Positions 11,264-60,570 of a stretch of 64,000 bases of DNA are shown one piece after another. Below the pieces are notes generated by a model that worked only from the letters and a program-made list of their open reading frames with translations, did not search any database and was not told the DNA's origin. Both the position numbers and the translations under genes were made by a program. The stretch lies in assembly GCA_965237415.1 (NCBI GenBank), contig CBDEFM010000002.1, positions 1,504,001 to 1,568,000 on the forward strand, in the 5' to 3' direction. The first letter of the stretch is position 1; every line of letters begins with the position of its first letter. The stretch comes from Alphaproteobacteria bacterium (lineage in GTDB: Bacteria; Pseudomonadota; Alphaproteobacteria; UBA828).

Positions 11264-11266
11264 CGA

Positions 11267-11946: not shown

Positions 11947-12085
11947 CCAAATCGTGCGTCATGGGGCGATCGATGGCGGTGCACGGCCATGCACCCTCGC
12001 TAAATCGGAGCCGGTCTTGCGAACATGGCGCGCGAAAAGGCTGCTGCCTCGTGCGCCGAAGACCAGGAGATGGAGGTGATGTGGC

Positions 12086-38085: not shown

Positions 38086-38547
38086 TCAGCTCTTGAGAGC
38101 GACCACCGCTTCGATCTCGACCGGTATCTGGAACGGCAACGAGTTCATGCCGATCGCCGAGCGCGCGCACCGGCCCGGCTCCCCAAAGATATCGACCATC
38201 AGAGTCGAGAATCCGTCGATGACTTTCGGATGGTGCTCGAAGTCTGGCGCCGCGTTCACCATGCCGAGAACCTTGACAAAACGCTCCACCCGGTCGAGGT
38301 CGCCGATCACCGCCCTGAGGCTCGACAGAAGGTTCAGCCCGACCAGGCGGGCTGCCTCGACCGCCTCCTCGATGCTCACCTCGGTCGGGACCTTGCCGGT
38401 CAGATGGCCGCCGTCCGCGCGGCGCGGCCCATGCCCCGCGATGAACACGAGATTGCCGGTGACGACCGCACCGACGTAGGCGCCCAGGGGCGGAGGCGGC
38501 GCGGGCAATGTGATGGCAAGTTCCGTCAACCGTGCTTCGATGGTCAT
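38086..38547 (-). CDS. RidA/YjgF family protein
   Basis: PPLGAYV, FIAGHGP, HPKVIDGFS, ARSAIG, PVEIE. Confidence 0.9.
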   Translation of the reverse strand: MTIEARLTELAITLPAPPPPLGAYVGAVVTGNLVFIAGHGPRRADGGHLTGKVPTEVSIEEAVEAARLVGLNLLSSLRAVIGDLDRVERFVKVLGMVNAAPDFEHHPKVIDGFSTLMVDIFGEPGRCARSAIGMNSLPFQIPVEIEAVVALKS

Positions 38548-38706: not shown

Positions 38707-40413
38707 CTAGTCCGGGTCTGCGGGCGGATTGGACAAGCGATCCAGAATGTCGGCGAGGCGGCTGGGATCGGCGCTTGGCATGCCGATCTCCTTGAGCAGC
38801 GCGTCAATGATCGGGGCCTGAGCCCGGTATCGTAGCGCGCTATCGGTCAGCTGCTCGGCGTAGTTGCCTGGGCCGCTGCCTTCGCCCCGGCTCCCGGTCG
38901 AGCCGGCACCGAGGCCATCGACGTGCACGATCTTGATCCCTTCGATCTTTTCGAGGGGCTTGACGGTCTCGCCGATAATCTCCTGCAGCCGCTCGATGAT
39001 CGCCATCTTGACCTTGAGCTCGATCAGTTCGGGCGTGAGCGCGGTATCGGCTTCGTGCATGGCGCGTTGGGCCTTGGCCTCTACCGCGCTGCGCACGTCC
39101 GCGGCATCGGCGCGCTGCTTCTCGGCGTCTGCCTCGGCCAGGGCAAGAAGGCGTACGCGGTTTGCCTCGCTCTCGGTCTGGATGTGGTTGGTCTCGGCCA
39201 ACTCCGCGGCCGCTTGGCGCCGGGCCTCGGCGGAGACCACGACGCCGATCGCGGTGCGTTCCGCCTCCTGTCGCGCCGCAACCAGCTCGATCTCCTTCTG
39301 CCGCTCGGCCCGTTCCACCTCGCGCACCGTGGCGACGGTCTCGCTCGCCCGAACCGCCTCTGAGCGGGCCGTCTCGGCCTCGGCCTGGGCGTGCGATTGA
39401 TCCTTCGATCGCTCCGCCACCGAGATATCTCGTTCGAACCGGGCCAGTTCGATCGTGGCGTCGCGGGCGATCTCGTGCTCACGCACCTTCTGCTCCGAAT
39501 CGAGACGCGCCTCGTTGACGATTCGCTCGGAGGTGATCTGGGTCAATTCGATCTGCTCGCGCGCATTGACCCGAGACTCTTCAATATGCCGGTCCCGCTC
39601 CGCCTCCTCCGCCGCGATCTCCGACTTCTGCTGCGCGCGCCGAATCGCGATCTCCTTCTGCTGCTGAAGGCGAGCATGCTCTTCCTGCTTGGTGATCTCG
39701 AGCTTGAGGCGCTCCGCTTGGAGGTTCTTCTCCTGGATCGCGACCTCGGCGTCCTGCTCGATCTCGTTGCGCGCCCGGCGCCGCGTCTCGATCTCCGCAG
39801 TCAGCTTGGTCAGGCCCTCCGCGTCGAACGCATTGTTGGGGTTGAAGTACTCGCGGCTCGCCTGATCGAGGCCCGTGAGCGAGATCGATTCGAGCTCCAG
39901 GCCGTTGTGCGCGATCTCCTCCGTCAACGTGGCCCGAACCGTCCGGACGAAGTCGATGCGCTGCTCGTGCAACTGCTGCATGTCCCGCTCGGCCGCGACC
40001 GAGCGCAGCGCGTCGACGAACTTCCCTTCCAGCAGCGGCCGCAGCTGCTCCGCATCGAGGGTCTTCGAGCCGAGGGTCTGCGCGGCAGCGCCGATGGCCT
40101 CTGCATTGGGACGGACTCGGACGAAGAACTCCGCCGTAACGTTAACCCGCATGCGATCACGGGTGATCAGCGCGTGCTCGTCCCCGCGCGCGAGGTCGAG
40201 CAGCAGGGTCTTCATGTTGACAGGGGTGGTGTTGTGTAGAACCGGCAGAACGAACGCGCCGCTGTTCATGACGATCTTCTCGCCGCCGAGCCCGGTACGC
40301 ACGAACGACATCTCCTTCGATGCGCGATCGTAGAGCCACCAGAACAAGAGCCACGCGATCCCGATGACGGCAAGGATCACCACGACTATCAGGACGATAC
40401 CGCCTGCACCCAT
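38707..40413 (-). CDS. Flotillin (SPFH) family protein
   Basis: N-terminal TM, FVRTGLGG, LITRDRMRV, LEGKFVDALRSVAA, NNAFDAEGL, coiled coil, VKPLEKIEGIKI. Confidence 0.92.
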   Translation of the reverse strand: MGAGGIVLIVVVILAVIGIAWLLFWWLYDRASKEMSFVRTGLGGEKIVMNSGAFVLPVLHNTTPVNMKTLLLDLARGDEHALITRDRMRVNVTAEFFVRVRPNAEAIGAAAQTLGSKTLDAEQLRPLLEGKFVDALRSVAAERDMQQLHEQRIDFVRTVRATLTEEIAHNGLELESISLTGLDQASREYFNPNNAFDAEGLTKLTAEIETRRRARNEIEQDAEVAIQEKNLQAERLKLEITKQEEHARLQQQKEIAIRRAQQKSEIAAEEAERDRHIEESRVNAREQIELTQITSERIVNEARLDSEQKVREHEIARDATIELARFERDISVAERSKDQSHAQAEAETARSEAVRASETVATVREVERAERQKEIELVAARQEAERTAIGVVVSAEARRQAAAELAETNHIQTESEANRVRLLALAEADAEKQRADAADVRSAVEAKAQRAMHEADTALTPELIELKVKMAIIERLQEIIGETVKPLEKIEGIKIVHVDGLGAGSTGSRGEGSGPGNYAEQLTDSALRYRAQAPIIDALLKEIGMPSADPSRLADILDRLSNPPADPD

Positions 40414-40581
40414 TGCTACGATCTCCCCTGTCGCGACCTTGGCCGCGTGGCTGGCGGTCGCCGAGCGTTGTCGAAACTATTACGGAACTTGTCTCGGCAT
40501 GCCAGCGTCAATACCCTGCCAGACCGAATGACGGCGCGCAGGCTCCAAGGATAGCCGCCGGACCAAACCGCGAAGGCAGGC

Positions 40582-42055
40582 ATGGCGACACCGGCGCGAG
40601 AGGTCGCTCCCGGGCTTAGAGAGCTGAGCAATTATGTCGGTGGCCGGTTCGAGGCGACCGGCTCGTTGTTCGATGACGTGACGCCGGTGAGCGGCGCAGT
40701 CGTCGCGCGAGTACATGAGGCCGACGCGGCGCTTATTGACGCCGCGGTCCACGCCGCGCGCGGCGCCTTCGAGAGTGCATGGCGGCCGCTGCCGATCGCC
40801 GAGCGTTGCGCCCTGCTTCACAAGGTCGCGGACGGCGTCGAGGAGCGTTTCGACGATTTCCTCGAGGCGGAAGTGGCTGATACCGGCAAGCCGGCGTCGA
40901 TCGCGCGTGAGATCGATATTCCGCGCGGCGCGGCCAACTTCCGGATGTTCGCCGATTTGATCAAGACAGCGGGCACAGATTGCTTCGAGATGGACACGCC
41001 CGATGGCCGCGGAGCCCTCAACTACTCGGTGCGAGAGCCCCATGGCGTGGTGGGCGTCATCGCGCCCTGGAACCTGCCGCTCCTCCTGCTCACCTGGAAG
41101 GTCGCGCCGGCGCTCGCGAGCGGGAACACGGTGATCGCCAAGCCGTCCGAGGAGACCCCGGCGACGGCGACCCTGCTCGCCGAGGTGATGGACGCGGCAG
41201 GCGTACCCCCCGGCGTGTTCAATGTTGTCCACGGCTTCGGGCCGAATTCGGCGGGCGAATGGCTCTCTCGTCACCCGGGGATCGATGCGCTCACCTTCAC
41301 GGGCGAGAGCAAGACTGGCGCTGCCATCATGAATGCCGCCGCCGATACCGTGAAGCCGCTCTCGTTCGAACTCGGCGGCAAGAATGCGGCCGTCATCTTC
41401 GCCGACGCGGATTTCGAGGCGGCGATCGAGGGCACAACACGGTCAGTGTTCGCAAATTGCGGGCAGGTTTGCCTCAACTCCGAGCGAGTCTATGTCGAGC
41501 GACCCATCTTCGAGCGCTTCGTCGCGGCCCTGAAGGAGCGGGCCGAAGCGTTGGTCCCGGCCGATCCCTGGGCCGACGACTGCACGTTGGGGCCACTCAT
41601 CTCGGCCGAGCATCGCACCAAGGTTCTCGGCTACTACGATCTCGCCAGAGACGAGGGCGCAGAGGTGGTGACCGGCGGGGGCGTGCCGGACTTCGGCGAC
41701 GCGCGCGACGGCGGCTCCTACGTGCAACCGACGATCTGGACCGGCCTCACCGACACCGCGCGCTCGGTGCGCGAGGAGATCTTCGGACCGGTCTGTCATA
41801 TTGCGCCGTTCGACAGCGAGGACGAGGCGATCGCCCGCGCCAACGACAGCGACTACGGCCTCGCAACCGCAATCTGGACCCGCGATCTGTCACGCGCGCA
41901 TCGCGTGGCGCGGCGGATCGCGGTTGGGATTTGCTGGGTCAATTGCTGGTTTCTGCGTGATCTCCGAACCCCGTTCGGCGGCGTCAAGCTCTCCGGAATC
42001 GGCCGGGAGGGTGGGCTCCACTCGCTCAACTTCTATGCCGAGCAGAAGAACATCT

Positions 42056-42069
<14 letters not shown>
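40582..42069 (+). CDS. amnC: 2-aminomuconic / 2-hydroxymuconic semialdehyde dehydrogenase
   Basis: IDIPRGAANF, PWNLPLLLLTWKVAPALA, FTGES, ELGGKN, GQVCL, WFLRDLRTPFGG; heads the amn operon. Confidence 0.88.
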
Positions 42070-43464
<1,395 letters not shown>

Positions 43465-43495
43465 CCATGGTTCCTGCGGGATCGGCCGCACGAAC

Positions 43496-44308
43496 ATGAC
43501 CCTCGCCGCCGCGTTCCTGGTTCCGGGTTCTCCTCTGCCCTATTTGCGCAAGGACAATCCGCCCTGGTCCGGTCTCGCCGCCGGCTACGAGAAGGCGGCG
43601 CGCGCGCTCTCCGCTGCCCGCCCCGACGTCGTGCTGCTCTACTCCACCCAATGGGTGGCGGTTCTGGACCAGCTCTGGCAGGAGCGGCCGCGATTGCAGG
43701 GACTGCATGTCGATGAGAATTGGTACGAGTTCGGCGAGTTGCCGTTCGACCTGGGCATCGACACCGCGCTCGCGCAGGCCTGTGTCGAGAATGCCAATGC
43801 GCTCGGGCTACACTCGAGGGGAATCGACTACGACGCCTTTCCGGTCGATACCGGAACCATCGTCGCCAGCAACAGCCTCGATCCCGAGGGTGCTCGACGT
43901 TTCGTGCTGGCCGCCAACAATCTCTACCACGACTTCGAGACCACCCGGCGCATCGCGACCATCGCGGGCGAGGCCGCGAGCGCGCAGGGCAAGCGCTTCG
44001 CCGTGGTCGGTGTCGGCGGACTTTCGGGCACGATATTCCGCGAAGAGATCGACATCGCCGACGATCGGATCGCGAGCGACGAGGACGATCGCTGGAACCG
44101 GCGTATGCTGAGCCTGCTGGAGAAGGGCGAGACGCAGCAGGTCGACCGGGAGTGCGCGGACTATGTGCAGGCGGCCAAGGTCGACATGGGCTTCAAGCAC
44201 CTCGCATGGATTCAGGGTGCGACGGGAGGACGCTATTACGGCGCGCGCATTCACGCCTACGGTCCGACTTATGGAGCCGGCGCGGCCGTCGTCGAGTTCA
44301 AGGTTTAG
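43496..44308 (+). CDS. amnA: 2-aminophenol 1,6-dioxygenase alpha subunit
   Basis: AFLVPGSPLP, YSTQW, LHVDENWYEFG, FPVDTGT, ANNLYH, DMGFKH, YGPTYGAGAAVVEF. Confidence 0.92.
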   Translation: MTLAAAFLVPGSPLPYLRKDNPPWSGLAAGYEKAARALSAARPDVVLLYSTQWVAVLDQLWQERPRLQGLHVDENWYEFGELPFDLGIDTALAQACVENANALGLHSRGIDYDAFPVDTGTIVASNSLDPEGARRFVLAANNLYHDFETTRRIATIAGEAASAQGKRFAVVGVGGLSGTIFREEIDIADDRIASDEDDRWNRRMLSLLEKGETQQVDRECADYVQAAKVDMGFKHLAWIQGATGGRYYGARIHAYGPTYGAGAAVVEFKV

Positions 44309-44336
44309 AGAATCGGATACAAACAGGGAGAAGACG

Positions 44337-45596
44337 ATGAGAAAGGTACTCTTGCTCGCGGCGTTCGCGATGGTCGCCGCGACTTCGTTCTGGCAAGCCG
44401 CGCCGGTGCAGGCGGCTGACGATTGCGTGGTCACGGTGGGCCGGGTCGTACCGCTCACGGGGCCCTTACTGGACATGGGCCGTGAAACGCCCTGGCTGGA
44501 CCACAACAAGGTCGATCCGATCAACGAGGCCGGAGGTCTGCAGGTCGGGGATCAGCAATGCAAGATCGAATTCAAGATCTTCGATTCGAAAGGCACGATG
44601 GCCGGTTCCGGCGAAGCTGCAACGCGGGCGATCTTGGGCGAGAAAGTCGACGTGGTCTTCGCGCAAGGCACGCCTGACACGACCAACGCTCCCTCGGACC
44701 TCTGCGAGCGCTACGAGGTGCCCTGCATCACCTCGAACACACCGGTCGAGGCATGGCTATTCGGTCCCGACGGCAAGCCGAAGACCTACACTCACACGTA
44801 CCATTTCTTCTTCGGCGTGCCGGACCTCGTCGCCAATCACGTTGGCATGATCAAATCGCTGCCGGGCGGCTTCAACGGGAAGATCGGCTACCTCTACCCG
44901 AACGATCCCGACGGCGTCGTCTTCGCAAGCCTGTTCGACCCGACCTTCAAGGGCGAGGGCTGGGAGCCCATCGATCCGGGCCGCTTCGAGCAAGGTATCC
45001 CCGATTTCTCCGCGATCATCAACAAGTTCAAGCGCGGTAGGGTCGAGGTCGTGACCGGCGTGCTGGCCCCGCCGGACCTGCAGAACTACCTGCAGCAAGC
45101 GGCGCAGGCAGGCTTCAAGCCGCGGATGTACATCATCGACAAGGCGACCGGCTATCCGGAGGCGATGCGGGCGCTCGGCAAATTCGGGATCGACATCCTG
45201 AGCGTGAATTTCTGGTCGCCGGCCTATCCGGGGTCGTCGAAATACGGCGGCTACACGGGTCAGGGTCTGGTCGATGCTTACGAGAGCGCCAACCCGGACA
45301 AGTACTATTCGCCGCCGCTGGCTTATACGGACGCCTCCTATGACGTCCTGTTCGACGCCCTGCAACGGGCCGGCACGACCGATCGTGTGGCGCTCCTCAA
45401 GGCGTTGGCCGAGACCGACTTGGACACCGTCGTCGGTCGCGTCAAATTCACCGAGCAACACTATTCGGTTCAGCCGCTCGGCGGGGCGCAGTGGCGCGTC
45501 GACGGCGAGACCAACCGCTGGGTCAAGGACAACGTCTACAACGCCGTCTATCCGGATGTGAAGAAAACCGCGGAGATGCGTCTCTACCAACAATAA
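44337..45596 (+). CDS. Liv-type ABC substrate-binding protein
   Basis: Signal peptide; VGRVVPLTGPL, INEAGGL, YPNDPDG, DFSAII. Confidence 0.88.
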   Translation: MRKVLLLAAFAMVAATSFWQAAPVQAADDCVVTVGRVVPLTGPLLDMGRETPWLDHNKVDPINEAGGLQVGDQQCKIEFKIFDSKGTMAGSGEAATRAILGEKVDVVFAQGTPDTTNAPSDLCERYEVPCITSNTPVEAWLFGPDGKPKTYTHTYHFFFGVPDLVANHVGMIKSLPGGFNGKIGYLYPNDPDGVVFASLFDPTFKGEGWEPIDPGRFEQGIPDFSAIINKFKRGRVEVVTGVLAPPDLQNYLQQAAQAGFKPRMYIIDKATGYPEAMRALGKFGIDILSVNFWSPAYPGSSKYGGYTGQGLVDAYESANPDKYYSPPLAYTDASYDVLFDALQRAGTTDRVALLKALAETDLDTVVGRVKFTEQHYSVQPLGGAQWRVDGETNRWVKDNVYNAVYPDVKKTAEMRLYQQ

Positions 45597-45601
45597 CGCA
45601 G

Positions 45602-45638
45602 TGGGACGGTGGCGGTCAGCGCGCCGCCGCCGTCCCAT
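45602..45638 (+). terminator. Strong intercistronic hairpin after SBP gene
   Basis: TGGGACGGTGGCGG...CCGCCGCCGTCCCA; no U-tract, so more likely an mRNA stabiliser or partial terminator. Confidence 0.6.
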
Positions 45639-45679
45639 CGCCGACGTTCTCCTCGCGGGTCTCAGACCGGTCCAGCACG

Positions 45680-46396
45680 ATGACCGAAATTCTGGTTGTA
45701 TCTGAGCTCTGCAAGTCATTCGGCGCGCTCCGGGTGGCCGACCGGATTTCCTTTGTCGTTCGGCAGGGAGAAATCCTCGGCATCATCGGGCCCAACGGGG
45801 CCGGCAAGACGACGCTGTTCGGCCTCCTCGCCGGCAATATCAGCGCCGATTCGGGGAACATCGAATTCGACGGTGCCGACGTAACCCGGTCGCCGGCGCA
45901 CGATCGCGCTCGTGGGGGCCTCGCCCGGACCTATCAGATTCCGCGCCCGTTCACGCACATGACGGTGTTCGACAATTTGCTGGTGGCCGCCCGTTTCGGT
46001 GGCAACATGGATGAAGCCGAAGCGGCGACCTGGGTCGAGCGCGTGATCGCGGCGCTGGGTCTGCGGGCCGAGCGCAATACCCTCGCGGGCCGATTGCCGT
46101 TGCTGATGCGCAAACGCCACGAGCTCGCGCGGGCTCTTGCCATGCGGCCGAAGCTCATTCTGGTAGACGAAGTGGCAGCTGGCCTGACCGATGCCGAAGT
46201 GGTGCAGTTCATCACGCTCATTCGCGGCATCCGTAATTCGGGCATCACGGTGGTGTGGATCGAGCACGTGATGAAGACCATGCTCACCGCGACCGATCGC
46301 CTCATCGTCTTGGATGCGGGGCGGCTCCTGGTCTCCGGTCCGCCACAGGAGGTGATCAACACATCGGAAGTTCGCCGTGTCTATCTTGGCGCCTGA
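45680..46396 (+). CDS. ABC ATP-binding protein (LivG-like)
   Basis: GPNGAGKTT, RTYQIPRPF, LVDEVAAGL, WIEH. Confidence 0.9.
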   Translation: MTEILVVSELCKSFGALRVADRISFVVRQGEILGIIGPNGAGKTTLFGLLAGNISADSGNIEFDGADVTRSPAHDRARGGLARTYQIPRPFTHMTVFDNLLVAARFGGNMDEAEAATWVERVIAALGLRAERNTLAGRLPLLMRKRHELARALAMRPKLILVDEVAAGLTDAEVVQFITLIRGIRNSGITVVWIEHVMKTMLTATDRLIVLDAGRLLVSGPPQEVINTSEVRRVYLGA

Positions 46397-47144
46397 GGAT
46401 GACGGGCCGCTTCTGAGGGTCGCGGGACTTTCCGCCTACTATGGCGAGCTTCGTGCGCTTACCAACATCGGCTTCGAGATCGAGCGCGGGGAGATTCTCT
46501 CGATCATCGGTGCCAACGGCGCTGGCAAGACAACCCTCTTGAAGTCTTTGGTGGGCTTGATGGGTCGCGGGCGCCTCGCCCGTATCGAAGGGCGGATCGA
46601 GTTCGAAGGCCGCGCCATCGAGCACCTGGCGACCGAGGACATCGTCAATGCCGGCATGGCGCTGGTACCCGAGGGCCGCCGCCTGTTCTCCCGGCTTTCG
46701 GTGCAGGAAAACCTCATGGCAGGCGCCTATCTGCCCCGCTGCCGAAGCACGCTGAAAGAGCGCCTCGACGAAATCTACGCGTTGTTTCCCGCGCTCGCCG
46801 AGCGGCGACGGCAGATCGTCTCGCAAATGTCCGGCGGTGAGCAGCAGATGGTGGCTATCGGGCGGGCGCTGATGTCGTCGCCGACGCTGATCCTGTTCGA
46901 CGAGTTATCGCTCGGCCTCGCCCCGTTCGTGGTCGACGACATCTACCGCAAGGTCAATCAAATTCACGAGCTGGGCGTGACCGCAATCGTAATCGAGCAG
47001 GACATGAGGCGCGCCCTGCGCGTCGCATCGCACGTGTTCGTCATGCTCGGGGGCCACGTCGTGCTGGAAGGCAAGCCCGAGTATCTCACCGAGGAGCAAG
47101 TCAGCGCCGCCTATTTCGGCGCCGGGATCGAAGGCCTCGGCTGA
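46377..47144 (+). CDS. ABC ATP-binding protein (LivF-like)
   Basis: GANGAGKTT, VPEGRRLF, MSGGEQQM, DELSLGLAP; start uncertain. Confidence 0.9.
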   Translation: MSILAPEDDGPLLRVAGLSAYYGELRALTNIGFEIERGEILSIIGANGAGKTTLLKSLVGLMGRGRLARIEGRIEFEGRAIEHLATEDIVNAGMALVPEGRRLFSRLSVQENLMAGAYLPRCRSTLKERLDEIYALFPALAERRRQIVSQMSGGEQQMVAIGRALMSSPTLILFDELSLGLAPFVVDDIYRKVNQIHELGVTAIVIEQDMRRALRVASHVFVMLGGHVVLEGKPEYLTEEQVSAAYFGAGIEGLG

Positions 47145-48061
47145 TGAGCGAGGATCTATACTGGACGCTCATCGACATCGCCAACGGCCTCCTCTCGGGC
47201 GCGATGCTCGGCGGCTACTACGCCATCATCAGCCTTGGTCTCGCACTGGTGTTCGGTGTCATGCGCCTGGTCAACCTGGCGCACGGCGATTGGCTTATCG
47301 TCGCCGCCTATATCGCGTCTGTGATCGTCCAGTTTCTCGGTTTCCCGCCCTTCGTGTCGTTGATCGTTGTCGTCCCCGCCATGTTCGCGATCGGCTACGC
47401 GCTGCAGCGCCAGGTGTTGAATCGGGTCTCGGTCCAGGCGATGGAAGAGAAGGGCATGTCGTCCAGTTTCGGGCTCATGTCCCCGATCCTGGTGACCTTC
47501 GGCCTGTCGATCGTGATCGCCCACGCGTTGCTCGGGATCTTCGCCTCGGACGCCACGGCCATCGAGAACGCGCTGAGCTATTCGGCGATCCGCCTGACGC
47601 AGGATCTCAGTATCTCGACCCTCCGCCTGATCTTCTTCGGAATTGCCAGCGTTATCCTGGTGAGCGTTCACCTGTTCCTGCATCGCACCCACGCGGGGCG
47701 GGCGATCCGCGCGGCATCGGACGATCCAGAGGTCGCCTCGCTCATGGGGATACGCACGGAGCGCATCTACGCGCTGGCGAGTGCGATCTCTCTCGCGGTC
47801 GCGGGCGTTGCCGGCGTCGCGGTCGGCATGTCGCGCACCTTTCAACCATTCGACGGGCCGCAGTTCCTGCTGATCGCGTTCGGCGTGGTGATCGTCGGCG
47901 GCCTCGGATCGATCGCCGGCAGCCTGGTCGGCGGCGTCCTGCTCGGCGTCACGCAGGTCCTGGCCGGGACCTATTTCGGCCCCTCCGCGCAACTCGTCGC
48001 CGGCTACATGCTGATCCTCTTCGTGCTCGCGGTACGCCCCCAAGGGCTCTTCTCGCGATGA
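47144..48061 (+). CDS. Liv-type ABC permease (LivH-like)
   Basis: GLALVFGVMRLVNLAHGD, GRAIRAASDD, GGLGSIAG. Confidence 0.9.
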   Translation: MSEDLYWTLIDIANGLLSGAMLGGYYAIISLGLALVFGVMRLVNLAHGDWLIVAAYIASVIVQFLGFPPFVSLIVVVPAMFAIGYALQRQVLNRVSVQAMEEKGMSSSFGLMSPILVTFGLSIVIAHALLGIFASDATAIENALSYSAIRLTQDLSISTLRLIFFGIASVILVSVHLFLHRTHAGRAIRAASDDPEVASLMGIRTERIYALASAISLAVAGVAGVAVGMSRTFQPFDGPQFLLIAFGVVIVGGLGSIAGSLVGGVLLGVTQVLAGTYFGPSAQLVAGYMLILFVLAVRPQGLFSR

Positions 48062-51000
48062 TCGCGCGTGGGCTCAACCTCTTGCTGACCGGCTGGTCGG
48101 GCCGGGGCTTGCTCGCCGTGCTGCTCGCCTTCGCCATCGCTATCCCGTGGCTGGTCGGCGATCGGAGCTACGTGACCTATTTGGTGTTCACGTTCTTCGT
48201 GTTTGCCGTGTTCGGCCACGCCTGGAACTTGCTGGCCGGCTACTGCGGTCTGCTCTCTTTCGGCAACCAGGTCTACGTCGGCATTGGCGGCTTCGCTCTG
48301 GCGATCATGTTCTACTACGGCGGCATCAACGTCTGGTTGGCGCTGCCAATCTCCGGAATTGTCACCGCGGCTTTCGCATTTCTGCTCGCGACACCGGTGC
48401 GGGAGAGCCTGGTCGGCATCGGGGTCTGGAAGCCCGTGGCAGTCGCCGGCGTGCTGTGGGCCGGCTACGAGGTCGCGCTTGGCTACTTTCCCGAGGCCGA
48501 CATCTTCGGCGAGGTCTATATCCGCCGCGTCATAATCCTCTTGCTGATCTTCCTCGGCGCCCTCCCCCTACTACGCCTGCAAGGCGCCTATTTCGCGGTC
48601 GCAAGCTGGTTGATCGCGGCCGCGGTGGGCTCGATCTTCAACGAGTGGAAAGTGGTCGGCGCCGGTGGTGGCATGCAGATCAAGACCGATGCCACACAGA
48701 TCGAGATGTATTACGCCGGCCTCGGGTTGCTTGTGTTCGCGACCGTGGTGATCGCGTGGCTTCTCAAGAGCCGGTACGGGCTCGCACTGACCGCGGTGCG
48801 CGACGATGAGGAAGCGGCGCGGACGGTCGGCATCGATATCCGCAAGGTGAAGCTGATCGTCTTCGTGGTCGCGGGCGGGCTCAGCGGCCTCGCGGCGGGT
48901 CTGTTCTATATCGACGCGGTGATCATCACGCCGCCGTCCGCGTTCACGATCTTCTGGTCGGCCTATTTCGTCTTCATCGTCGTCGCGGGCGGCATGGGCA
49001 CGCTGGCCGGCCCGATTATCGGTGCCGCAATCTTCGTCGTCGTCGACCGCGTGCTTTCCGGCTTCATCGAGTATCCGCTATTGGTCCTCGGAATCGCGGC
49101 CGTGGTCATCATCTTCGTGATGCCGCGTGGCGTCATGGGCATCATCAATGCGCTGCGGCATCTGGACGATTCGGCCACCGGCCGCAACGAATTGCTCGAA
49201 GCGCTCGGCATCGGCGACCGACTTCAACGCGCCCTGTTGTTCGCCAGACGGCGCGACACAACGCCGGGGGTGGTGGCGGCCTTCCTGGTTCCGGGCAGCC
49301 CCCTGCCGCTCCTCGCCCGCGACAATCCACCGTGGACCGAGATCGCGGACGGTTTCGAGGACGCGGCCGCTGCGCTGCGTGAGACGGAGCCCGACGTCAT
49401 CCTCATCTACTCGACTCAATGGCTCGCCGTTCTCGACCAGCCGTGGCAAACCCGGCCGCGCGTCCGCGGCCTCCATGTCGATGAAAACTGGTACGAGTAT
49501 GGCGAGATCGCCTACGACATCGAGATCGACACCGAGCTCGCAGAGGCGTGCATCAGCGCCTGCCGCACTCTCGGGATCAAGGCCCGCGGCGTCAACTATG
49601 ACGGCTTCCCGATCGATACGGGCAGCATCGTCGCCAACCGCTTCCTCAACGCGGACGGTGCCTGCGCGGTCGTCATGGCGGCGAACAACCTCTATCACGA
49701 TTGGGAGCAGACCCTGAAGCTCGGGGAGATGGCGGCGAACCAAGCGGTGCGCCTGGGCCGCCGGGTCGCCGTGATCGGCGTCGGCGGCCTGTCGGGCTCC
49801 ACGTTTCGACGCGAGATCGATCCTGCCGATGATCACATCGCAAGCGCGAGCGAAGATGCGTGGAACCGGCGGATGCTCGACACGATGGTCAGGGGCGATG
49901 CTTCGGCCATAAAGGCGCTGATCGCGGACTATGCGCGCGAAGCCCGCGCGGATATGGGTTTCAAGCATTTCGCCTGGGTGCTCGGCGCCATAGGAGGCCG
50001 CTTCCATAGCGCGACGGTTCACGCTTACGGCCCGACCTATGGAAGCGGCGCGGCGGTGGTGGAGTTTCACACCAGCGACGAGGCGGCGGTTCTCGCGGCG
50101 ACGCGGCGAAGGCGCCGGCAGCGGCGGGCTCTGCGGGAGCAGGCCGCGCAAAGCAGGTCACGGGACGACGACGGCGACGGCAGGCGAGCTCTCCTCCGTT
50201 GGCTCCCGGCGGGTTCGCGTCACTTGGCACCGACCGATCGCCCGTCGGCGACGCCGCCTGCCGCGCCTCCGTCGCTTCCTACCCGCCGGCAATCTGCCAC
50301 GCGGACCGGTCCCGCTCTCTATCGCTCGTTCCGCACTCAGGCCGAGATCGACACGCAATATGATGTCGAGAGCAGCGTGCCCGATTTCGGCCGACACGTG
50401 GATTTCTTCCTCTCCAGCAGCGCGCGCGTTCGCAAGAAGCTCGGGCCTCGGCTCGATGTGCCCTTCGGCCCGACCACCGCCGAGACCCTCGACATCTATC
50501 CGGCGGCCCGGTCCGATGCGCCGATTCACATGTTCATTCACGGCGGCTACTGGCACTCGTTGAGCAGTAAGGAGTTCAGCTTCGTCGCCGAGAGTCTGGT
50601 CGCGGCGGGCGTGACGGTGGTGATCAACAACTACGCGCTCTGCCCGGAGGTCACGATCACGGAGATCGTGCGGCAGAACCGTGCCGCGGTCGCATGGCTC
50701 TACCGCAATGCCGCAACCTTCGGCGGCAACCGGAGCCGCTTCTATGTATCGGGGCATTCGGCCGGCGGCCATCTGACGGCCATGTTGCTCGCGACCAATT
50801 GGGAGCGTGATTTCGGACTACCGCCCGACCTCGTCAAGGGCGGCACCGCGATCAGCGGCCTGTTCGACCTCGATCCCTTCGTTCATTCCTGGCTGCAGCC
50901 GAAGCTCCGCTTGACCGCCGAGGAGATCGATCGAATGAGCCCGATCCGACACGTCCCGGACCGCGCGTCTCCGCTGACCGTCACGCTCGGTGGCGATGAA

Positions 51001-51174
51001 TCCGCGGAGTTTCACCGCCAGTCCGAGACCTTCCTCGCCGCCTGGACCGAGAAGGGCCTCGACGGCCACTATCTCGACCTGCCCGGCCGCAACCATTTCA
51101 CGGTACTCGAGGACTACATGGACTCTGGTAGCCCGCTCTGCCGCTCGATCCTGCGGCAAATGGGGATTACTTGA
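48058..51174 (+). CDS. Fusion: LivM-type permease + aminophenol dioxygenase alpha-subunit domain + arylformamidase-type alpha/beta hydrolase
   Basis: One stop-free frame of 1038 aa from an ATG overlapping the livH stop. Permease about 48058-49145 (WNLLAGYCGLLSFG, AVRDDEEAA); AmnA-like about 49267-50067; hydrolase about 50317-51174 (HGGYW, GHSAG, NHF). Confidence 0.88.
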   Translation: MIARGLNLLLTGWSGRGLLAVLLAFAIAIPWLVGDRSYVTYLVFTFFVFAVFGHAWNLLAGYCGLLSFGNQVYVGIGGFALAIMFYYGGINVWLALPISGIVTAAFAFLLATPVRESLVGIGVWKPVAVAGVLWAGYEVALGYFPEADIFGEVYIRRVIILLLIFLGALPLLRLQGAYFAVASWLIAAAVGSIFNEWKVVGAGGGMQIKTDATQIEMYYAGLGLLVFATVVIAWLLKSRYGLALTAVRDDEEAARTVGIDIRKVKLIVFVVAGGLSGLAAGLFYIDAVIITPPSAFTIFWSAYFVFIVVAGGMGTLAGPIIGAAIFVVVDRVLSGFIEYPLLVLGIAAVVIIFVMPRGVMGIINALRHLDDSATGRNELLEALGIGDRLQRALLFARRRDTTPGVVAAFLVPGSPLPLLARDNPPWTEIADGFEDAAAALRETEPDVILIYSTQWLAVLDQPWQTRPRVRGLHVDENWYEYGEIAYDIEIDTELAEACISACRTLGIKARGVNYDGFPIDTGSIVANRFLNADGACAVVMAANNLYHDWEQTLKLGEMAANQAVRLGRRVAVIGVGGLSGSTFRREIDPADDHIASASEDAWNRRMLDTMVRGDASAIKALIADYAREARADMGFKHFAWVLGAIGGRFHSATVHAYGPTYGSGAAVVEFHTSDEAAVLAATRRRRRQRRALREQAAQSRSRDDDGDGRRALLRWLPAGSRHLAPTDRPSATPPAAPPSLPTRRQSATRTGPALYRSFRTQAEIDTQYDVESSVPDFGRHVDFFLSSSARVRKKLGPRLDVPFGPTTAETLDIYPAARSDAPIHMFIHGGYWHSLSSKEFSFVAESLVAAGVTVVINNYALCPEVTITEIVRQNRAAVAWLYRNAATFGGNRSRFYVSGHSAGGHLTAMLLATNWERDFGLPPDLVKGGTAISGLFDLDPFVHSWLQPKLRLTAEEIDRMSPIRHVPDRASPLTVTLGGDESAEFHRQSETFLAAWTEKGLDGHYLDLPGRNHFTVLEDYMDSGSPLCRSILRQMGIT

Positions 51175-51591
51175 GAGCAGGCGTATTGTCGGAACGGAGT
51201 GGGACGCCCCTCTGCCTGTGCCGCCAGGCTGCGCAAGAACATGGCCGAAGTCTATGGCAGGCTGAGGAAATGCGCGACGGAGCTTGAAGAGTACTACCCT
51301 GCGGCGGACGTGCTGTCGTTTCTGCTCCTCGACCTCGAAATGTACCCCGACGAGCTCGGCTGCGCGGAAGGACGCCCTCGCCTGTTGCCGCCATGTCGCA
51401 CTACGCCTTCTCTTCGAAGGAATCTTGGATGCAATGGGGCAAACGAGGTTTGCGGAAGAAAAGGATTCGCTCAGGGGCCGGGTGGAAACGATTATGCGCG
51501 GGGGCGTCCCGCCGCTACGCAGCTTGCTGACCGCGCTGCGCCCAGTTTTCAGCTTCTTGTAGGCGTGCTTGTTCTTTCCTTTACCACCTAC

Positions 51592-51787
51592 TACTTCGCC
51601 ATCCTTCGCGCCGTCATCGCCACCGTCCGAAAGCAAGGCTGGAATGTCCTCCAAACCCTGGCTGATCTCGATCCGATGCAAATGATCAGACAACTGCGCC
51701 TCTGAGAACCCAGCCCCGGTGACAGACCGGATCGCCACGATCCCGTCGCATCTGAACACTCGATCCAATCAGACCTGGGCAGTTGCC
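51592..51787 (+). mobile_element. IS66-family right-end remnant
   Basis: FAILRAVIATVRKQGWNVLQTL (TnpC C-terminus) and end sequence CCTGGGCAGTTGC resembling the IS66 IR. Confidence 0.7.
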
Positions 51788-52117
51788 CGATGGGACTGGA
51801 TATCGGGAACAATGGCGGACACGCCCTGACGGCTTTCCTGGACTTCGTCACCCTGACCTCCCGTCCCTACGCGCCGGCGCGTGCGCGCACCGCCCCCGCG
51901 TAATCCATCCCTCTATCGCCGCTCACGACGCGGAGGCGGGGTCGCCGGTCGCCGACGGCCTTCAACTTACGCCGCTCCGCTTCCGACAAGGTGATCGCTA
52001 CCGCTGCTCTGCCCACCAGTCATCCCTCCAACACAACCGATGAATTTATTCTAATAGACTTCTCGATCGCGACACTAGTTTGAGAACCTAACATGGTAGA
52101 AAGTTGTCATTCGCTCG

Positions 52118-53511
52118 GGAGCTATAGCCGAATCTTGGTGACGGTTTGGGTCAGGCGGCGGCTTGAGGTTGTTGCCTGACGGCTTCGATTCCGTCGATGA
52201 ACTTTACGCCGACGATCAGCTTGGGCAACTGGTTGTGTCCGTCGAGGCGGCGCCAACTGTCCTGTGCCGCCTGGGCGAGTTTTAAGACCATGGCGAGCGC
52301 CGTCTTGTTGGAGAGGCATCCCTTGGATCGCACGGTACGGTGTCGCACGGTGGCGACTGTGCTTTCGATGGGGTTGGTGGTGCGCAGATGCTTCCAATGC
52401 TCGGCGGGAAAGTCGTAGAACGCCAGCATCGTCGCGCGATCCTTGACCAGGCAGGCGGCCGCCTTGTCGTATTTGACGGCGTCGGTCTCGATGAAGGCGT
52501 CGAAGGCGCTGTCTGCGTCGTTCCTGGTCTCGGCCATCCAGATTTCCTGGAGAGCACGCTTTGCCTTCGAGTGCTGGCTCTTGGGCAGCTTGTTGAGCAC
52601 GTTGGCGGTCTTGTGCATCCAACAGCGCTGGCTGCGGGTCCGGGGCCACACCTCCTCGATCGCCTTCCAGAAGCCGAGCGCGCCGTCGGCGATGGCGAGT
52701 TCGGGCGCGACCGCAAGCCCGCGCCGTTTGAGGTCAAGTAGCAGCTCGCGCCACGATTGGGCGCTCTCGCGCACCCCGTCGATGAGGCCTACGAGTTCCT
52801 TCTTACCCTCCGGCGTCGCGCCGATGATGACCAGCAGGCATTGCGCATCGTCCTCGAGCCGGGCCTGCACATGGATGCCGTCGGCCCAGAAGTAAACATA
52901 GTGCCTGGCCGACAGATCCCGCTTCAGCCAGTGCGCGTGCTGGTCCGCCCAAACCTCGGTGAGCCGCGCCACGGTCGAGGCCGACAGGCCGCCGGCGTCC
53001 GGCCCGAGCAAGGCCGCCAGCGCCACGGCGAAGTCGCCCGTGGAGATGCCCTTGAGGTAGAGCACGGGGATCGGGACTTCGAGGCTCGTCGAGCGCCGCG
53101 CATAAGGCGGCAGGAGCGCGGAGCTGAACCGGATGCGCTCGGCGCCCTGGCCCGTGCGGTCGCGAACGCGTGGCGCGCGAACCGCAACCGGGCCGATGCC
53201 GGTCATGATCTCGCGTTCGGGCAGGTGGCCGTGGCGCACCAGCCGTCGGCGGCCTTCTTCGGTGCGCGCCTCGGAGTGGCCATCAAGGAACCCGGCAACC
53301 TCCGCCTCGACCGCCCGCGCCAGCAGGGACCGGGCGCCGCTGCGCAGCACCTCGGTCAACGGATCGGAAAACGTCGATGGCTGGGAAAGCTTCAAAACGG
53401 TATTGTCACTCACGGCGTATCACTCCTTCGTTGGAGAAGTGGAGGCTCGATTACCCCCACGATACGCCGCCTTAACCCTTCACCCCGTCACCAACTTCTG
53501 GCCATAGCTCC
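52118..53511 (-). mobile_element. IS256-family insertion sequence
   Basis: IRs GGAGCTATAGCCGAATCTTGGTGACGG / CCGTCACCAACTTCTGGCCATAGCTCC; no matching TSD seen. Confidence 0.9.
52151..53413 (-). CDS. IS256-family transposase
   Basis: YLKGISTGDF, WADGI, IADGALGFW, QRCWMH, LRTTNPIES. Confidence 0.93.
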   Translation of the reverse strand: MSDNTVLKLSQPSTFSDPLTEVLRSGARSLLARAVEAEVAGFLDGHSEARTEEGRRRLVRHGHLPEREIMTGIGPVAVRAPRVRDRTGQGAERIRFSSALLPPYARRSTSLEVPIPVLYLKGISTGDFAVALAALLGPDAGGLSASTVARLTEVWADQHAHWLKRDLSARHYVYFWADGIHVQARLEDDAQCLLVIIGATPEGKKELVGLIDGVRESAQSWRELLLDLKRRGLAVAPELAIADGALGFWKAIEEVWPRTRSQRCWMHKTANVLNKLPKSQHSKAKRALQEIWMAETRNDADSAFDAFIETDAVKYDKAAACLVKDRATMLAFYDFPAEHWKHLRTTNPIESTVATVRHRTVRSKGCLSNKTALAMVLKLAQAAQDSWRRLDGHNQLPKLIVGVKFIDGIEAVRQQPQAAA

Positions 53512-56766: not shown

Positions 56767-57897
<1,131 letters not shown>

Positions 57898-59790: not shown

Positions 59791-60570
59791 TCACCCGTCG
59801 AAAATGGCGACCGCGCGGGTCCAGCCCGCCGAGGCGCCGCGGATCTTCACCGGGAAGCAGCACACCGTGAAGCCGTCGCCCGGCAGCACCTCCAGATTGT
59901 GCAGTTTCTCGAGATGGCAATAGCCGATGTCGCGACCGGCCTTGTGCCCTTCCCAGATGATCGAGGCATCGCGGTTCTCGGCATAGCGCTTGGCCGTGTG
60001 GCTAAAGGGCGCGTCCCAACTCCAGGCGTCGGTGCCGGTCAGGCGCACGCCGCGCTCGAGCAGACACATGGTGGCGTCGTAGCCCATCCCGCATCCGGCA
60101 TCGACATAGTCGTCATCGCCGTAGGCCGACCCGGCGCGGGTGTTGACCACGACGATATCCAGCGGCCGGAGGTCGTGGCCGATCCGCGTCAGTTCCGCGG
60201 CGACATCGTCGGCGGTCGCGACGTAGCCGTCGTCGAAATGGCGGAAGTCCAGTTTCACGCCGGGCTGCATGCACCAGTCGAGCGGCACTTCGTCGATGGT
60301 GATGGCGCGCTCGCCGCGGTTCATGGTCGAGGCGAAGTGATAGGGCGCATCGAGATGGGTGCCGTTATGGGTGATGAGCTGCACCATCTCCACCGCCCAG
60401 GCCTCGCCGTCGGGAAGATCCTCCTTCTTCAGGCCGGGGAAGAAGGGCGCCATCTGCTCGTAGGATTGATGGTGGTCGAAATAGGTGATCTTCGGGCTGT
60501 ATGGCTGCGGATCGGAGATCACATCATTCTCCAGCGGCATCGAGATATCGACAATCCTGCGTGTCATCAT
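59791..60570 (-). CDS. Cyclase-family (KynB-like) metal hydrolase
   Basis: HNGTHLDAPYH motif, GTDAWSWD, WEGH, HLEKL, GASAGWTRAVA. Confidence 0.9.
   Translation of the reverse strand: MMTRRIVDISMPLENDVISDPQPYSPKITYFDHHQSYEQMAPFFPGLKKEDLPDGEAWAVEMVQLITHNGTHLDAPYHFASTMNRGERAITIDEVPLDWCMQPGVKLDFRHFDDGYVATADDVAAELTRIGHDLRPLDIVVVNTRAGSAYGDDDYVDAGCGMGYDATMCLLERGVRLTGTDAWSWDAPFSHTAKRYAENRDASIIWEGHKAGRDIGYCHLEKLHNLEVLPGDGFTVCCFPVKIRGASAGWTRAVAIFDG

Follow-up and report, generated by a model that had tools for sequence, protein, structure and literature searches.

The locus reported here bears on pathways built around 2-aminophenol 1,6-dioxygenase, with its catalytic beta subunit (AmnB) and non-catalytic alpha subunit (AmnA). 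According to PMC10470539, the alpha/beta heterodimers of this enzyme dimerise via their beta subunits, and either subunit alone is insoluble on expression. That text also describes Actinobacteria that enclose the same pathway in a microcompartment, and its authors discuss the containment of toxic or dead-end intermediates. The canonical gene order is amnJBAC, with amnJ next to amnB, as given in PMC3790839. We analysed a 64,000-nucleotide stretch of alphaproteobacterial DNA (the window) in which an AmnA-like domain lies within a single gene between a LivM-type ABC permease and an alpha/beta hydrolase.

Organization of the fusion gene and its operon

A sequence-only reading of the window had described a single 1038-aa frame containing a permease, an AmnA-like domain and a hydrolase, alongside catalytic AmnB and free AmnA. 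The frame, the three Pfam domains and, in the same operon, both subunit genes are all found (Table 1). The gene translates without interruption to 1038 residues and one terminal stop, and its ATG shares bases with the TGA that closes the LivH-type gene before it (ATGA); the open frame extends upstream as far as 47290, and relatives also begin at MIA. The permease domain scores 97.4 bits against Pfam BPD_transp_2 (cut-off 26.8), with the match reaching residue 355 and hydrophobic segments residue 354. Its NCBIfam LivM and UrtC scores (99.3 and 97.1 bits) are both under cut-off, and a sequence search for a solved homologue of this domain found none. The middle domain matches Pfam LigB (57.6 bits, residues 422-657) and the C-terminal domain matches BD-FAE and Abhydrolase_3 (residues 811-938). 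Judged from charge and the count of hydrophobic segments only, the fused C-terminal domains would lie on the cytoplasmic side of the membrane.

Table 1. Features of the fusion gene and its neighbours, by position in the window.
Feature	Position	Strand	Basis or remark
Flotillin-like gene, divergent from operon	38707..40413	-	Pfam Flot and Band_7
AmnC-like muconic semialdehyde dehydrogenase	40582..42069	+	Pfam Aldedh 524.9 bits
amnJ-like RidA/YjgF-family gene, between amnC and amnB	42083..42460	+	Start not fixed; NCBIfam Rid 61.7 bits, under cut-off
AmnB, catalytic beta subunit	42550..43464	+	3vsg_B, E 9.3e-166, residues 145-442 of long ORF
Stand-alone AmnA (alpha subunit)	43496..44308	+	Pfam LigB
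Periplasmic substrate-binding protein (SBP)	44337..45596	+	Pfam Peripla_BP_6 112.9 bits
ABC ATPase 1	45491..46396	+	Pfam ABC_tran 93.2 bits, from ORF residue 84
ABC ATPase 2	46377..47144	+	Pfam ABC_tran 99.5 bits
LivH/UrtB-type permease	47144..48061	+	BPD_transp_2 115 bits; stop overlaps fusion-gene start
LivM-type permease::AmnA-like domain::alpha/beta hydrolase, single gene	48058..51174	+	Translation, three Pfam domains, full-length relatives
LivM/UrtC-type ABC permease domain	48058..49140	+	Ends ...VMPRGVMG; Pfam BPD_transp_2
Linker 1, ~43 aa, Arg-rich	49141..49269	+	No in-frame ATG; in-frame TTG and GTG present
AmnA' domain, non-catalytic alpha-type subunit of 2-aminophenol 1,6-dioxygenase	49270..50080	+	3vsg_A and 8ihg_B matches
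Linker 2, ~78 aa, low-complexity Arg/Pro/Ala-rich	50081..50313	+	Varies among relatives
Alpha/beta hydrolase domain, HSL / kynurenine-formamidase-like group	50314..51171	+	Pfam BD-FAE, Abhydrolase_3; HGGYW, GHSAG, NHF

Across relatives the conserved cluster order is flotillin / amnJ-amnB-amnA-SBP-(hydrolase)-2 ATPases-livH-livM::amnA'(::hydrolase)-amnC. AmnC exceeds the cut-off of the NCBIfam equivalog TIGR03216 (855.5 against 693.25 bits), and two homologues of the amnJ-like gene (L002:3978-4403 and L006:3937-4485) score 80 and 98 bits against Pfam Ribonuc_L-PSP. AmnB begins at GTG 42550 or, a few codons earlier, at an ATG; the 446-aa open reading frame from 42124 is an over-extension, with the 3vsg_B match confined to its residues 145-442. 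The AmnB residues H14, H63 and E252 are invariant among 51 sequences. ABC ATPase 1 probably starts later than 45491, and the LivH/UrtB-type permease scores 147.7 bits against NCBIfam UrtB (cut-off 250.3) and 99 bits against LivH. The SBP has a signal-peptide-like N-terminus (MRKVLLLAAFAMVAATSFWQAAPVQA/ADD) and a mean pairwise identity of 0.78 over 51 loci; a search for a close solved relative of the SBP found none, the best match (E 1.1e-05) being uninformative.

Of the 120 relatives listed, 51 are three-domain proteins, the most distant at 58% identity, and the remaining 69 have the commoner two-domain form with permease and AmnA-like domain only, so that the parts are not always encoded as three separate genes. 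The suggestion that this architecture was undescribed holds in that our literature search found no description of it, although it is not unique to this genome and belongs to a widespread family; JGI already names some members automatically as permease/ring-opening dioxygenase. The sequence-only reading had overlooked two genes, the conserved flotillin and the amnJ-like one, as well as the two-domain form and a lineage whose fused domain has decayed.

Integrity of the two junctions

At junction 1, 73 of 74 genomic loci are in frame and free of stops, as are 18 of 18 at junction 2. Junction 1 is open across Alpha- and Betaproteobacteria and one gammaproteobacterial record, although the linkers differ from locus to locus in both length and sequence: the gap between tblastn matches at linker 1 is 28-90 aa (median 42), and linker 2 is 52-83 aa long in 18 three-domain loci. 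Contigs from three other studies (runs X2, X3 and X11) have 0 gaps over 49085-49328 and 49917-50402; in one minor contig of X2, a +1 and a -1 at 49381/49384 compensate for each other. An RNA library (X18), in which DNA may be present, also has contigs on 49138-49447 and 50010-50234.

That three genes were joined through indel errors in assembly or sequencing is hardly conceivable. The window lies in a genome assembled into 2 contigs, and a close relative, P0023, changes to another reading frame after residue 722, within the GC-rich linker 2 (P0021 and P0028 resemble it in the table of relatives). Both would suit such an error, but the same open frame recurs, at 58-99% identity, among the relatives listed from dozens of independent assemblies. 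This and the intact junctions, in genomic loci as in the gap-free short-read-type contigs, refute an artefact as far as sequence data can do so. The fusion gene is real and is evolutionarily maintained under selection.

As had been claimed, neither linker contains an in-frame ATG, there being no methionine in either stretch. Both do contain in-frame GTG or TTG codons, which had gone unmentioned: GTG GTG stands immediately 5' of AAFLVPG in linker 1, and linker 2 has one TTG at 50224. Internal initiation is thus possible, but with no stop in the permease frame, read-through into the following domain is unavoidable whether or not it occurs.

The fused AmnA' domain and its predicted contact with AmnB

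The AmnA' domain matches the solved structures 3vsg_A (E 7.7e-100) and 8ihg_B (1.9e-89) and aligns with the stand-alone AmnA without gaps at 58% identity (156/268, E 3e-123), the alignment containing all six blocks previously said to be common to the two. The AmnB ligand positions H14, H63 and E252 are G, Q and D in the fused domain, as in free AmnA, and LSG stands at the site of the AmnB LSH; in stand-alone AmnA two of AmnB's three ligand residues are missing. Without the iron ligands of AmnB, the domain is on sequence grounds of the alpha type and non-catalytic, in agreement with the identity first proposed for it.

Free AmnA was found in every locus with sufficient upstream sequence, and the fused copy is therefore not required for building the enzyme. 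The fused copy also evolves faster, with a mean pairwise identity of 0.48 compared to 0.61 for free AmnA (0.56 and 0.62 when a degenerate lineage is left out). In the nine loci of that lineage the fused domain is down to about 30% identity, with lower conservation at the predicted AmnB interface (0.37) than elsewhere in the domain (0.55); these loci retain AmnB, AmnA and the hydrolase, and most of them flotillin. Tethering of AmnB would thus be dispensable in some lineages.

The predicted complex of AmnB with the fused domain, a prediction that the sequence-only reading had called for, scores 0.87 against 0.00 for the best of three controls, although it was made without alignments and the score may reflect the model's memory of solved AmnAB-type structures. 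Three runs share at least 95% of contacts, the partner pLDDT is at least 86, and in calibration 51 of 78 solved complexes attained this mark, as did 2 of 108 mismatched pairs. Over 61 fused domains the 29 predicted interface positions have a mean top-residue frequency of 0.78 versus 0.64 for the other 241, and 14/29 versus 61/241 positions reach at least 0.9 (Fisher p 0.015, Mann-Whitney p 0.0013), a test that is built on the same complex model and a difference that conserved fold motifs may inflate. Free AmnA shows a similar pattern (0.79 versus 0.70). The modelled complex suggests that AmnB may dock on the transporter-borne AmnA' domain.

A domain that has kept its fold and lost its catalytic residues, and that is joined to a transporter rather than to an enzyme already served by free AmnA, could also be a regulatory pseudo-enzyme. 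The dead LigB domain would sense cytoplasmic aminophenol, or AmnB as a signal, and throttle the importer to keep the entry of a toxic substrate from outpacing its breakdown; a regulatory role that changes would agree with the faster, lineage-specific divergence, and other ABC importers do carry trans-inhibition domains. We regard this as distinctly unlikely, as conservation is highest on the surface predicted to contact AmnB, alpha subunits are not known to bind ligand, the catalytically intact hydrolase fused behind the domain is left unexplained, and the regulatory domains known from ABC importers belong to the ATPases and not to the permease.

The hydrolase and the flotillin

The hydrolase motifs HGGYW, GHSAG and NHF, reported earlier and seen in the translation, are nearly invariant: at least 97% of the 62 homologues have them. 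The more specific name of arylformamidase is weakly supported: in its favour are the motifs and a remote similarity to Drosophila kynurenine formamidase (4e11_A, E 1.7e-15), but esterases and lipases are closer (9n8r_A, 9.6e-44; 2pbl_A matches at 1.1e-20) and NCBIfam HaHSL_fam (residues 764-1032, 155 bits) is under its cut-off of 320. Of 59 assessable loci, 39 have the hydrolase as its own gene, placed between those for the SBP and the ATPases, 17 have it fused, none has both arrangements, and 3 lack it. By eye, no hydrolase of at least 40% identity was counted in the layouts of 35 amnBA loci lacking the transporter. The constancy of the hydrolase in the transporter operon of relatives is consistent with a role in processing the imported compound.

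The flotillin gene was found in 52 of 55 loci, with the domain call confirmed by Pfam in four of four distant homologues. Among amnBA loci it accompanies 18 of the 19 that have the transporter and none of the 35 that lack it (Fisher p 2e-13, for loci that are not phylogenetically independent), and is the sole Flot match in its own genome and likewise in three of five other carrier genomes checked.

Could AmnA' mainly dock the hydrolase, or flotillin, at the transporter, with the three-domain form fixing a contact that is elsewhere non-covalent? Interacting partners are often found fused, the fused hydrolases form one clade (19/19, SH-aLRT 100) and go back to a single event, and both the either-or placement of the hydrolase and the co-occurrence of flotillin with the transporter-type cluster would agree. 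We nonetheless consider it very improbable: the variable 52-83-aa linker argues for a loose tether over a fixed interface, and in locus L076, where LivM ends with a stop and the AmnA' domain is absent, a separate hydrolase gene still lies just downstream.

The same locus bears on the view that the fusion is tolerated and has no channelling role. An ancestral livM-amnA-amnC would have lost the livM stop, with the hydrolase tethered later, and the tethered parts would act as if free, near the membrane but without particular benefit. Not only the missing AmnA' domain of L076 but also the faster evolution of the fused copy, its decay in one lineage, the linker 2 frameshift in at least one close relative (P0023) and the position of the fused domain directly 5' of amnC in two-domain loci, like that of amnA in amnBAC clusters, can be read in this way. 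We think it unlikely, since junction 1 stays open in all but one locus despite freely varying linkers, a second enzyme joined the polypeptide in one clade and has been kept there in every locus, the hydrolase gene otherwise lies within the transporter operon, flotillin occurs only with the transporter-type cluster, and the predicted AmnB interface is selectively conserved.

A proposed membrane-anchored module

The interpretation that we prefer, and hold with about even confidence, is a membrane-anchored module for the uptake, deacylation and ring cleavage of an o-aminophenol-type compound. The ABC importer (SBP, two ATPases, and LivH- and LivM-type permeases) would import the substrate, and the dead AmnA-like domain at the cytoplasmic C-terminus of the LivM-type permease would dock catalytic AmnB. 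With the alpha-beta:beta-alpha build of AmnAB, one transporter-borne alpha' could hold a beta2 dimer with free AmnA capping the second beta, which would explain the retention of both copies. The hydrolase, tethered by a presumably disordered linker in this lineage and elsewhere encoded by its own gene within the transporter operon, would strip an N-acyl, formyl or carbamoyl-type group off the imported compound. The freed, autoxidisable aminophenol would be cleaved at the membrane, AmnC and RidA-type proteins would then handle the unstable semialdehyde and enamine products, and the cluster-specific flotillin would probably serve to arrange the assembly within the membrane. In this scheme we infer the cytoplasmic position of the fused domains, the docking of AmnB, the stoichiometry, the substrate of the hydrolase and its place in the pathway, any benefit of channelling and the role of flotillin.

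The enclosure of the same pathway in an actinobacterial microcompartment is a conceptual parallel to the possible module anchored in the membrane to which the genes here point. If this is true, a reactive compound would probably be degraded at its point of entry into the cell.

A permease, an AmnA-like domain and a hydrolase in one reading frame

Translation of the fusion gene yields 1038 residues with a single stop codon, at its end, and its ATG overlaps the stop codon of the preceding LivH-type gene. As proposed in an earlier inspection made without database searches (the sequence-only reading), this one frame contains a permease, an AmnA-like domain (AmnA', spanning residues ∼405–675 of this membrane protein) and an alpha/beta hydrolase, and translation and Pfam matches agree on all three. 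The motifs and shared sequence blocks cited in that reading were all found, and neither linker has an in-frame ATG; in-frame GTG and TTG codons, which it did not mention, do occur in the linkers.

Features of the fusion gene and its surroundings (window coordinates, or residues of the fusion protein for domains)
Feature	Position	Strand	Placement	Evidence
Hydantoinase_B/oxoprolinase gene; Calx-beta domain protein gene	30188-32011; 33647-35665	+; -	upstream, unrelated to the cluster	
Transposase genes (IS1595, Mutator and IS110 families)	36459-37418; 52151-53413; 56923-57696	+; -; +	flanking the cluster	
Second RidA-family gene	38086-38547	-	behind the flotillin gene	
Flotillin gene	38707-40413	-	divergent, upstream of the operon	Pfam Flot 126.8 bits, Band_7 43.9 bits
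AmnC-type dehydrogenase		+	upstream	NCBIfam TIGR03216 855.5 bits, above cut-off
amnJ-like RidA/YjgF gene	about 42083-42460	+	between amnC and amnB; previously unlisted	
AmnB	true start near 42550	+		3vsg_B, E 9.3e-166
Free AmnA	43496-44308	+	upstream of the fusion gene	
Periplasmic substrate-binding protein (SBP), two ATPases, LivH/UrtB-type permease		+	upstream of the fusion gene	
Fusion gene	48058-51174	+		
BPD_transp_2 domain	up to residue 355		fusion protein	Pfam 97.4 bits, cut-off 26.8
Linker 1	49141-49269	+	between permease and AmnA'	
LigB domain	residues 422-657		fusion protein	Pfam 57.6 bits
Linker 2	50081-50313	+	between AmnA' and hydrolase	
BD-FAE and Abhydrolase_3	residues 811-938		fusion protein	Pfam
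Cyclase-family gene	59791-60570	-	9 kb downstream, past IS elements; outside the conserved cluster	

Relatives do not always encode the three parts as separate genes. When 5.8 billion proteins were searched under a length restriction, 7,999 candidates were scored, 329 of them at E 0.001 or better; among the 120 relatives listed of these 329, permease, LigB and hydrolase occur together in 51 (1010–1043 aa, 99% to 58% identity), and permease and LigB without a hydrolase in 69 (mostly 665–700 aa). Eighty genomic loci were then fetched by alignment of the two- and three-domain forms. The permease/AmnA-like junction is in the same frame and stop-free in 73 of 74 loci, the exception being L071, and the AmnA-like/hydrolase junction is so in all 18 of 18. 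Linker length and sequence vary among relatives (linker 2 is 52–83 aa) yet the frame stays open, as predicted by selection for a single polypeptide. Contigs from three other studies span both junctions with zero gaps. Those of an RNA-library run (X18) also cover both junction regions, with DNA possibly present in the library; coverage is 23 of 30 bins, and the uncovered bins carry no evidential weight. An assembly artefact is ruled out by the three-domain relatives, the open junctions across loci and the gap-free contigs of other studies. The fusion is real, and the architecture is widespread.

A hidden gene beneath linker 2, in another frame or strand, was considered and rejected: the three forward frames contain nothing protein-like, and the fusion frame of the relatives stays open. 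One 983-aa relative (P0023) is 92% identical over residues 1–722 and then changes frame inside the GC-rich linker 2, leaving its hydrolase part out of frame, which may reflect an error in sequencing or a genuine split. Two others (P0021 and P0028) resemble it, as read from the table of listed relatives rather than from an alignment. On a 2.9 kb Lichenihabitans contig (L076:1170-2878), LivM ends with a stop without an AmnA-like domain and a separate hydrolase gene lies directly behind it, a third architecture of the transporter-hydrolase pairing.

Organization of the cluster

By tblastn across the 80 loci, the cluster order is flotillin, (MarR), amnJ-amnB-amnA-SBP-(hydrolase)-ATPase-ATPase-livH-livM::amnA'-(hydrolase or amnC). 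The cluster is conserved across Alpha-, Beta- and one Gammaproteobacterial record, with the same transporter gene order in 61 related loci. The canonical order is amnRJBAC (PMC3790839), whereas the cluster here is interrupted by transporter genes. The amnJ-like gene had been hidden because the amnB frame is open upstream to 42124. Scans of 40300–52200 returned 0 promoter-like sites (shuffles, mean 2.0) and 8 terminator-like sites (7.7 in shuffles), nothing usable. The Mutator-type transposase gene begins ∼1 kb past the fusion-gene stop.

The transporter

Like those of the LivHMGF/UrtABCDE (HAAT) importers, the transporter genes encode an SBP whose N-terminus resembles a signal peptide, two ATPases and two BPD_transp_2 permeases, the stop codon of one permease gene overlapping the start of the next. 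The transporter differs from these importers in that its LivM-type subunit carries 680 extra residues of enzyme-derived domains, predicted to be cytoplasmic, its NCBIfam scores are sub-cut-off, and its SBP lacks a close solved relative. The best NCBIfam models for the permeases are LivM/UrtC and UrtB/LivH, all below equivalog level (LivM 99.3 bits against a cut-off of 366; UrtC 97.1 against 296.2). No solved homologue of the permease was found at E 0.01 or better, and its topology remains an inference from a crude hydropathy scan in which segments overlap. The best solved matches of the SBP are Leu-binding proteins (E 1e-05) and are uninformative for its ligand. The presence of urea-transporter models among those nearest to the permeases is weak evidence, compatible with an uncharged, amide-type cargo. 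We note that one locus (L075) has a related transporter that is unfused and without amn genes.

AmnA' is a non-catalytic alpha-type domain

AmnA' aligns with free AmnA without gaps at 58% identity, and matches solved alpha subunits (PDB 3VSG/3VSH, 8IHG, 7TXY) at E 7.7e-100, 1.9e-89 and 2.4e-57, the best of these matches (3vsg_A) covering domain residues 8–274; solved beta subunits match it at 1e-19 to 1e-22. In 51 AmnB sequences H14, H63, E252 and the histidine of the LSH motif are invariant, the first three being residues that we take to be iron ligands from structural work on CnbC and the last the catalytic histidine. The corresponding positions are G, Q, D and G in free AmnA and AmnA' alike, and because of these replacements AmnA' is considered alpha-type and non-catalytic. 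An alpha-type middle domain lacking the beta ligand residues, with AmnB, AmnC and an amnJ-like gene adjacent, is shared with the AmnAB (CnbCaCb) systems. Known AmnA alpha subunits, however, are free proteins of ∼270 aa, whereas AmnA' is a C-terminal extension of an ABC permease and not the free, soluble subunit by which AmnA is defined. It also differs from the CnbCaCb-type alpha subunits in occurring alongside a free AmnA, in diverging more quickly than that copy and in having degenerated in one lineage.

Mean pairwise identities over 51 loci are 0.79 for AmnB and 0.78 for the SBP, which is thus about as conserved as AmnB, 0.70 for LivH, 0.63 for LivM, 0.61 for free AmnA, 0.57 for the hydrolase and 0.48 for AmnA', the last rising to 0.56 when a degenerate lineage is left out. 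AmnA' is under constraint, albeit weaker than that on free AmnA. In the degenerate lineage (L056, L057, L059, L061, L062, L063, L067, L068 and L074) AmnA' has ∼30% identity and lies at about 11100–12000 in most of the nine loci, with AmnB, free AmnA and the hydrolase retained; there, AmnA' may be vestigial or re-purposed.

In a tree of 144 LigB rows, free and fused copies diverge in parallel across taxa. They do not form two clean free and fused clades in this tree, which shows 5 and 4 label changes, leaves many forks open and carries long-branch warnings, and in which the L071 row is wrongly labelled 'free' through a distance rule. The pattern is that expected of parallel, ancient paralogues, and we do not claim a single origin.

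Predicted docking of AmnB

The complex of AmnA' with AmnB was predicted on single sequences, without alignments. It scored 0.87, with the best control at 0.00; the runs share at least 95% of contacts and partner pLDDT is at least 86. In calibration of the tool, 51 of 78 solved complexes and 2 of 108 mismatched pairs reached this mark. The prediction supports binding of AmnB to AmnA', although solved AmnAB complexes exist and the score may reflect only likeness to those.

Conservation of the modeled surface was compared in 61 fused domains. The 29 predicted interface positions have a mean top-residue frequency of 0.78 against 0.64 for the other 241, and 14 of the 29 reach 0.9 or above compared to 61 of the 241 (Fisher p 0.015; Mann-Whitney p 0.0013). 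Free AmnA shows a similar pattern (0.79 interface, 0.70 rest), whereas in the nine diverged loci the predicted interface is less conserved than the rest (0.37 versus 0.55). The main lineage, which includes the window, thus retains a surface predicted to receive a beta subunit, and one lineage has given it up.

For a related enzyme, PMC10470539 describes alpha/beta heterodimers that pair via their beta subunits, with neither subunit soluble alone. Pairing of this kind would permit an assembly of permease-alpha':beta:beta:free alpha, a stoichiometry that we infer.

The hydrolase

The sequence-only reading called the hydrolase an arylformamidase. The HGGxW oxyanion motif, the GxSxG nucleophile and the catalytic His of such enzymes are present, but formamidases are not the closest characterized relatives. 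Among solved structures the best match is 9n8r_A, 'Lipase 1' (9.6e-44), followed by esterase 2pbl_A (1.1e-20) and the Drosophila kynurenine formamidase 4e11_A (1.7e-15), and the best NCBIfam model is the hormone-sensitive-lipase family HaHSL_fam (155 bits, below the cut-off of 320). The arylformamidase label is therefore not established. The fusion gene encodes HGGYW, GHSAG and NHF, which are conserved to at least 97% across 62 homologues (W and Y to at least 80%); the three, respectively an oxyanion motif, a nucleophile elbow and a C-terminal histidine motif, are common to 4E11 and to the family IV/HSL esterases 9N8R and 2PBL. From our reading of the alignment, a conserved Glu occupies the position of the acid residue of the fly formamidase, given the number that we presume that residue to have. 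Unlike these enzymes, the hydrolase here is either part of a transporter protein or the product of a gene within a transporter operon.

Among 61 loci with an SBP, the first ATPase and a fused permease, 39 have the hydrolase as a gene of its own, placed between those for the SBP and first ATPase, and 17 have it fused; none has both, 3 have no hydrolase and 2 could not be assessed. All of the fused hydrolases (19 of 19) group in a single clade with SH-aLRT 100, consistent with a single hydrolase fusion event in the alphaproteobacterial lineage of the window. No hydrolase match of at least 40% identity was seen in 35 amnBA loci without the transporter, as read from their layouts rather than by a scripted count. 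In a Rhizobium sp. locus (L087:10007-12824) amnB and amnA are followed directly by a hydrolase gene whose product shares 76% identity with the fused hydrolase; no transporter gene intervenes, and the contig ends shortly after. The window also contains a Cyclase-family gene outside the cluster (see table); we take this family to be that of the bacterial KynB-type kynurenine formamidases.

A flotillin gene accompanies the transporter

The flotillin gene is an additional, independent lead. Its product has a Band_7/SPFH domain and, after it, a Flot domain. Flot and Band_7 are also matched by 4 of 4 distant cluster homologues, and the NCBIfam FloT match is weak (44 bits; cut-off 700). A flotillin homologue is found in 52 of the 55 loci whose sequence reaches 3 kb or more upstream of amnB. 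A control set of 80 AmnB-anchored loci was reduced to 54 by setting aside 26 whose flanks were too short. Of the 19 amnBA loci in this set that include the transporter, 18 carry flotillin, as against 0 of the 35 that lack it; because these loci are related to one another, the Fisher p of 2e-13 makes them look more independent than they are. The cluster flotillin is the sole Flot match in the genome of the window and in 3 of 5 other carrier genomes (4 of 6 checked). In contrast to other bacterial flotillins (FloT; YqiK-type SPFH), it is linked genetically to a single catabolic transporter cluster, and we know of no flotillin client relationship of this kind.

In 22 of the 55 loci tallied, a MarR-type regulator gene lies between flotillin and amnJ (e.g. 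L033:2130-2816, reverse strand). It overlaps the flotillin start, so there flotillin is probably co-transcribed with the cluster regulator, divergent from the amn operon. The lineage of the window is without the MarR-type gene at flotillin.

A possible transporter-anchored metabolon

The sequence-only reading proposed a transporter-anchored catabolic metabolon, in which a permease is fused to an aminophenol-dioxygenase alpha subunit and an arylformamidase. Its observation stands, with the frame, relatives and junctions confirmed, and its interpretation is borne out in part. AmnB is very similar to solved 2-aminophenol and 2-amino-5-chlorophenol enzymes, which points to a simple aminophenol as the compound whose ring is cleaved. 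In the scheme that the evidence favors, a binding-protein-dependent importer would bring in a masked o-aminophenol, the hydrolase, a regular companion of the transporter with its motifs intact, would unmask it, and AmnB, tethered to the permease via the dead alpha' domain, would cleave the ring; AmnC and the RidA-type proteins would handle the unstable products, and flotillin would arrange the assembly. We regard such a flotillin-organized metabolon, acting where the transporter opens into the cytoplasm, with a dead subunit that recruits AmnB and a tethered hydrolase, and bypassing a free pool, as a tentative reading, possible but somewhat short of probable.

The closest published concept comes from Actinobacteria, where the ARO microcompartment confines AmnAB together with the aldehyde dehydrogenase of 2-aminophenol meta-cleavage; its authors argue for a precursor upstream of 2-aminophenol as the true substrate (PMC10470539). 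ARO has a protein shell and a targeting extension on AmnB; here there are no shell genes, and confinement would come instead from covalent tethering to the importer and from flotillin. In openly licensed PMC and bioRxiv full text we found no description of a permease-LigB/AmnA fusion, of the cluster or of a comparable ABC-importer metabolon; JGI automatic annotation already gives family members a composite name. The parts thus come from known families (ABC importer, AmnAB dioxygenase, HSL-type hydrolase, flotillin), and it is their physical and genetic coupling that is undescribed.

The architecture merits experimental follow-up, and the hypothesis is directly testable since the cluster occurs in cultured strains, by record titles Mesorhizobium sp. 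ANAO-SY3R2, Xenophilus sp. L33, Phaeobacter sp. 11ANDIMAR09 and Neopusillimonas aromaticivorans CC-YST667. The cluster points to a natural substrate whose SBP matches AmnB in conservation. If AmnA' docks AmnB, it would be an example of a dead paralogue reused as a membrane anchor, and of a natural design that couples import to destruction of a reactive, self-oxidizing intermediate, in parallel to the actinobacterial microcompartment solution. The functions of proteobacterial flotillins are poorly defined, and the cluster offers them a concrete, testable client. If the metabolon reading is true, it would be a first example of a bacterial ABC importer joined covalently to catabolic enzymes, and would give a proteobacterial flotillin a first client complex that is defined genetically.
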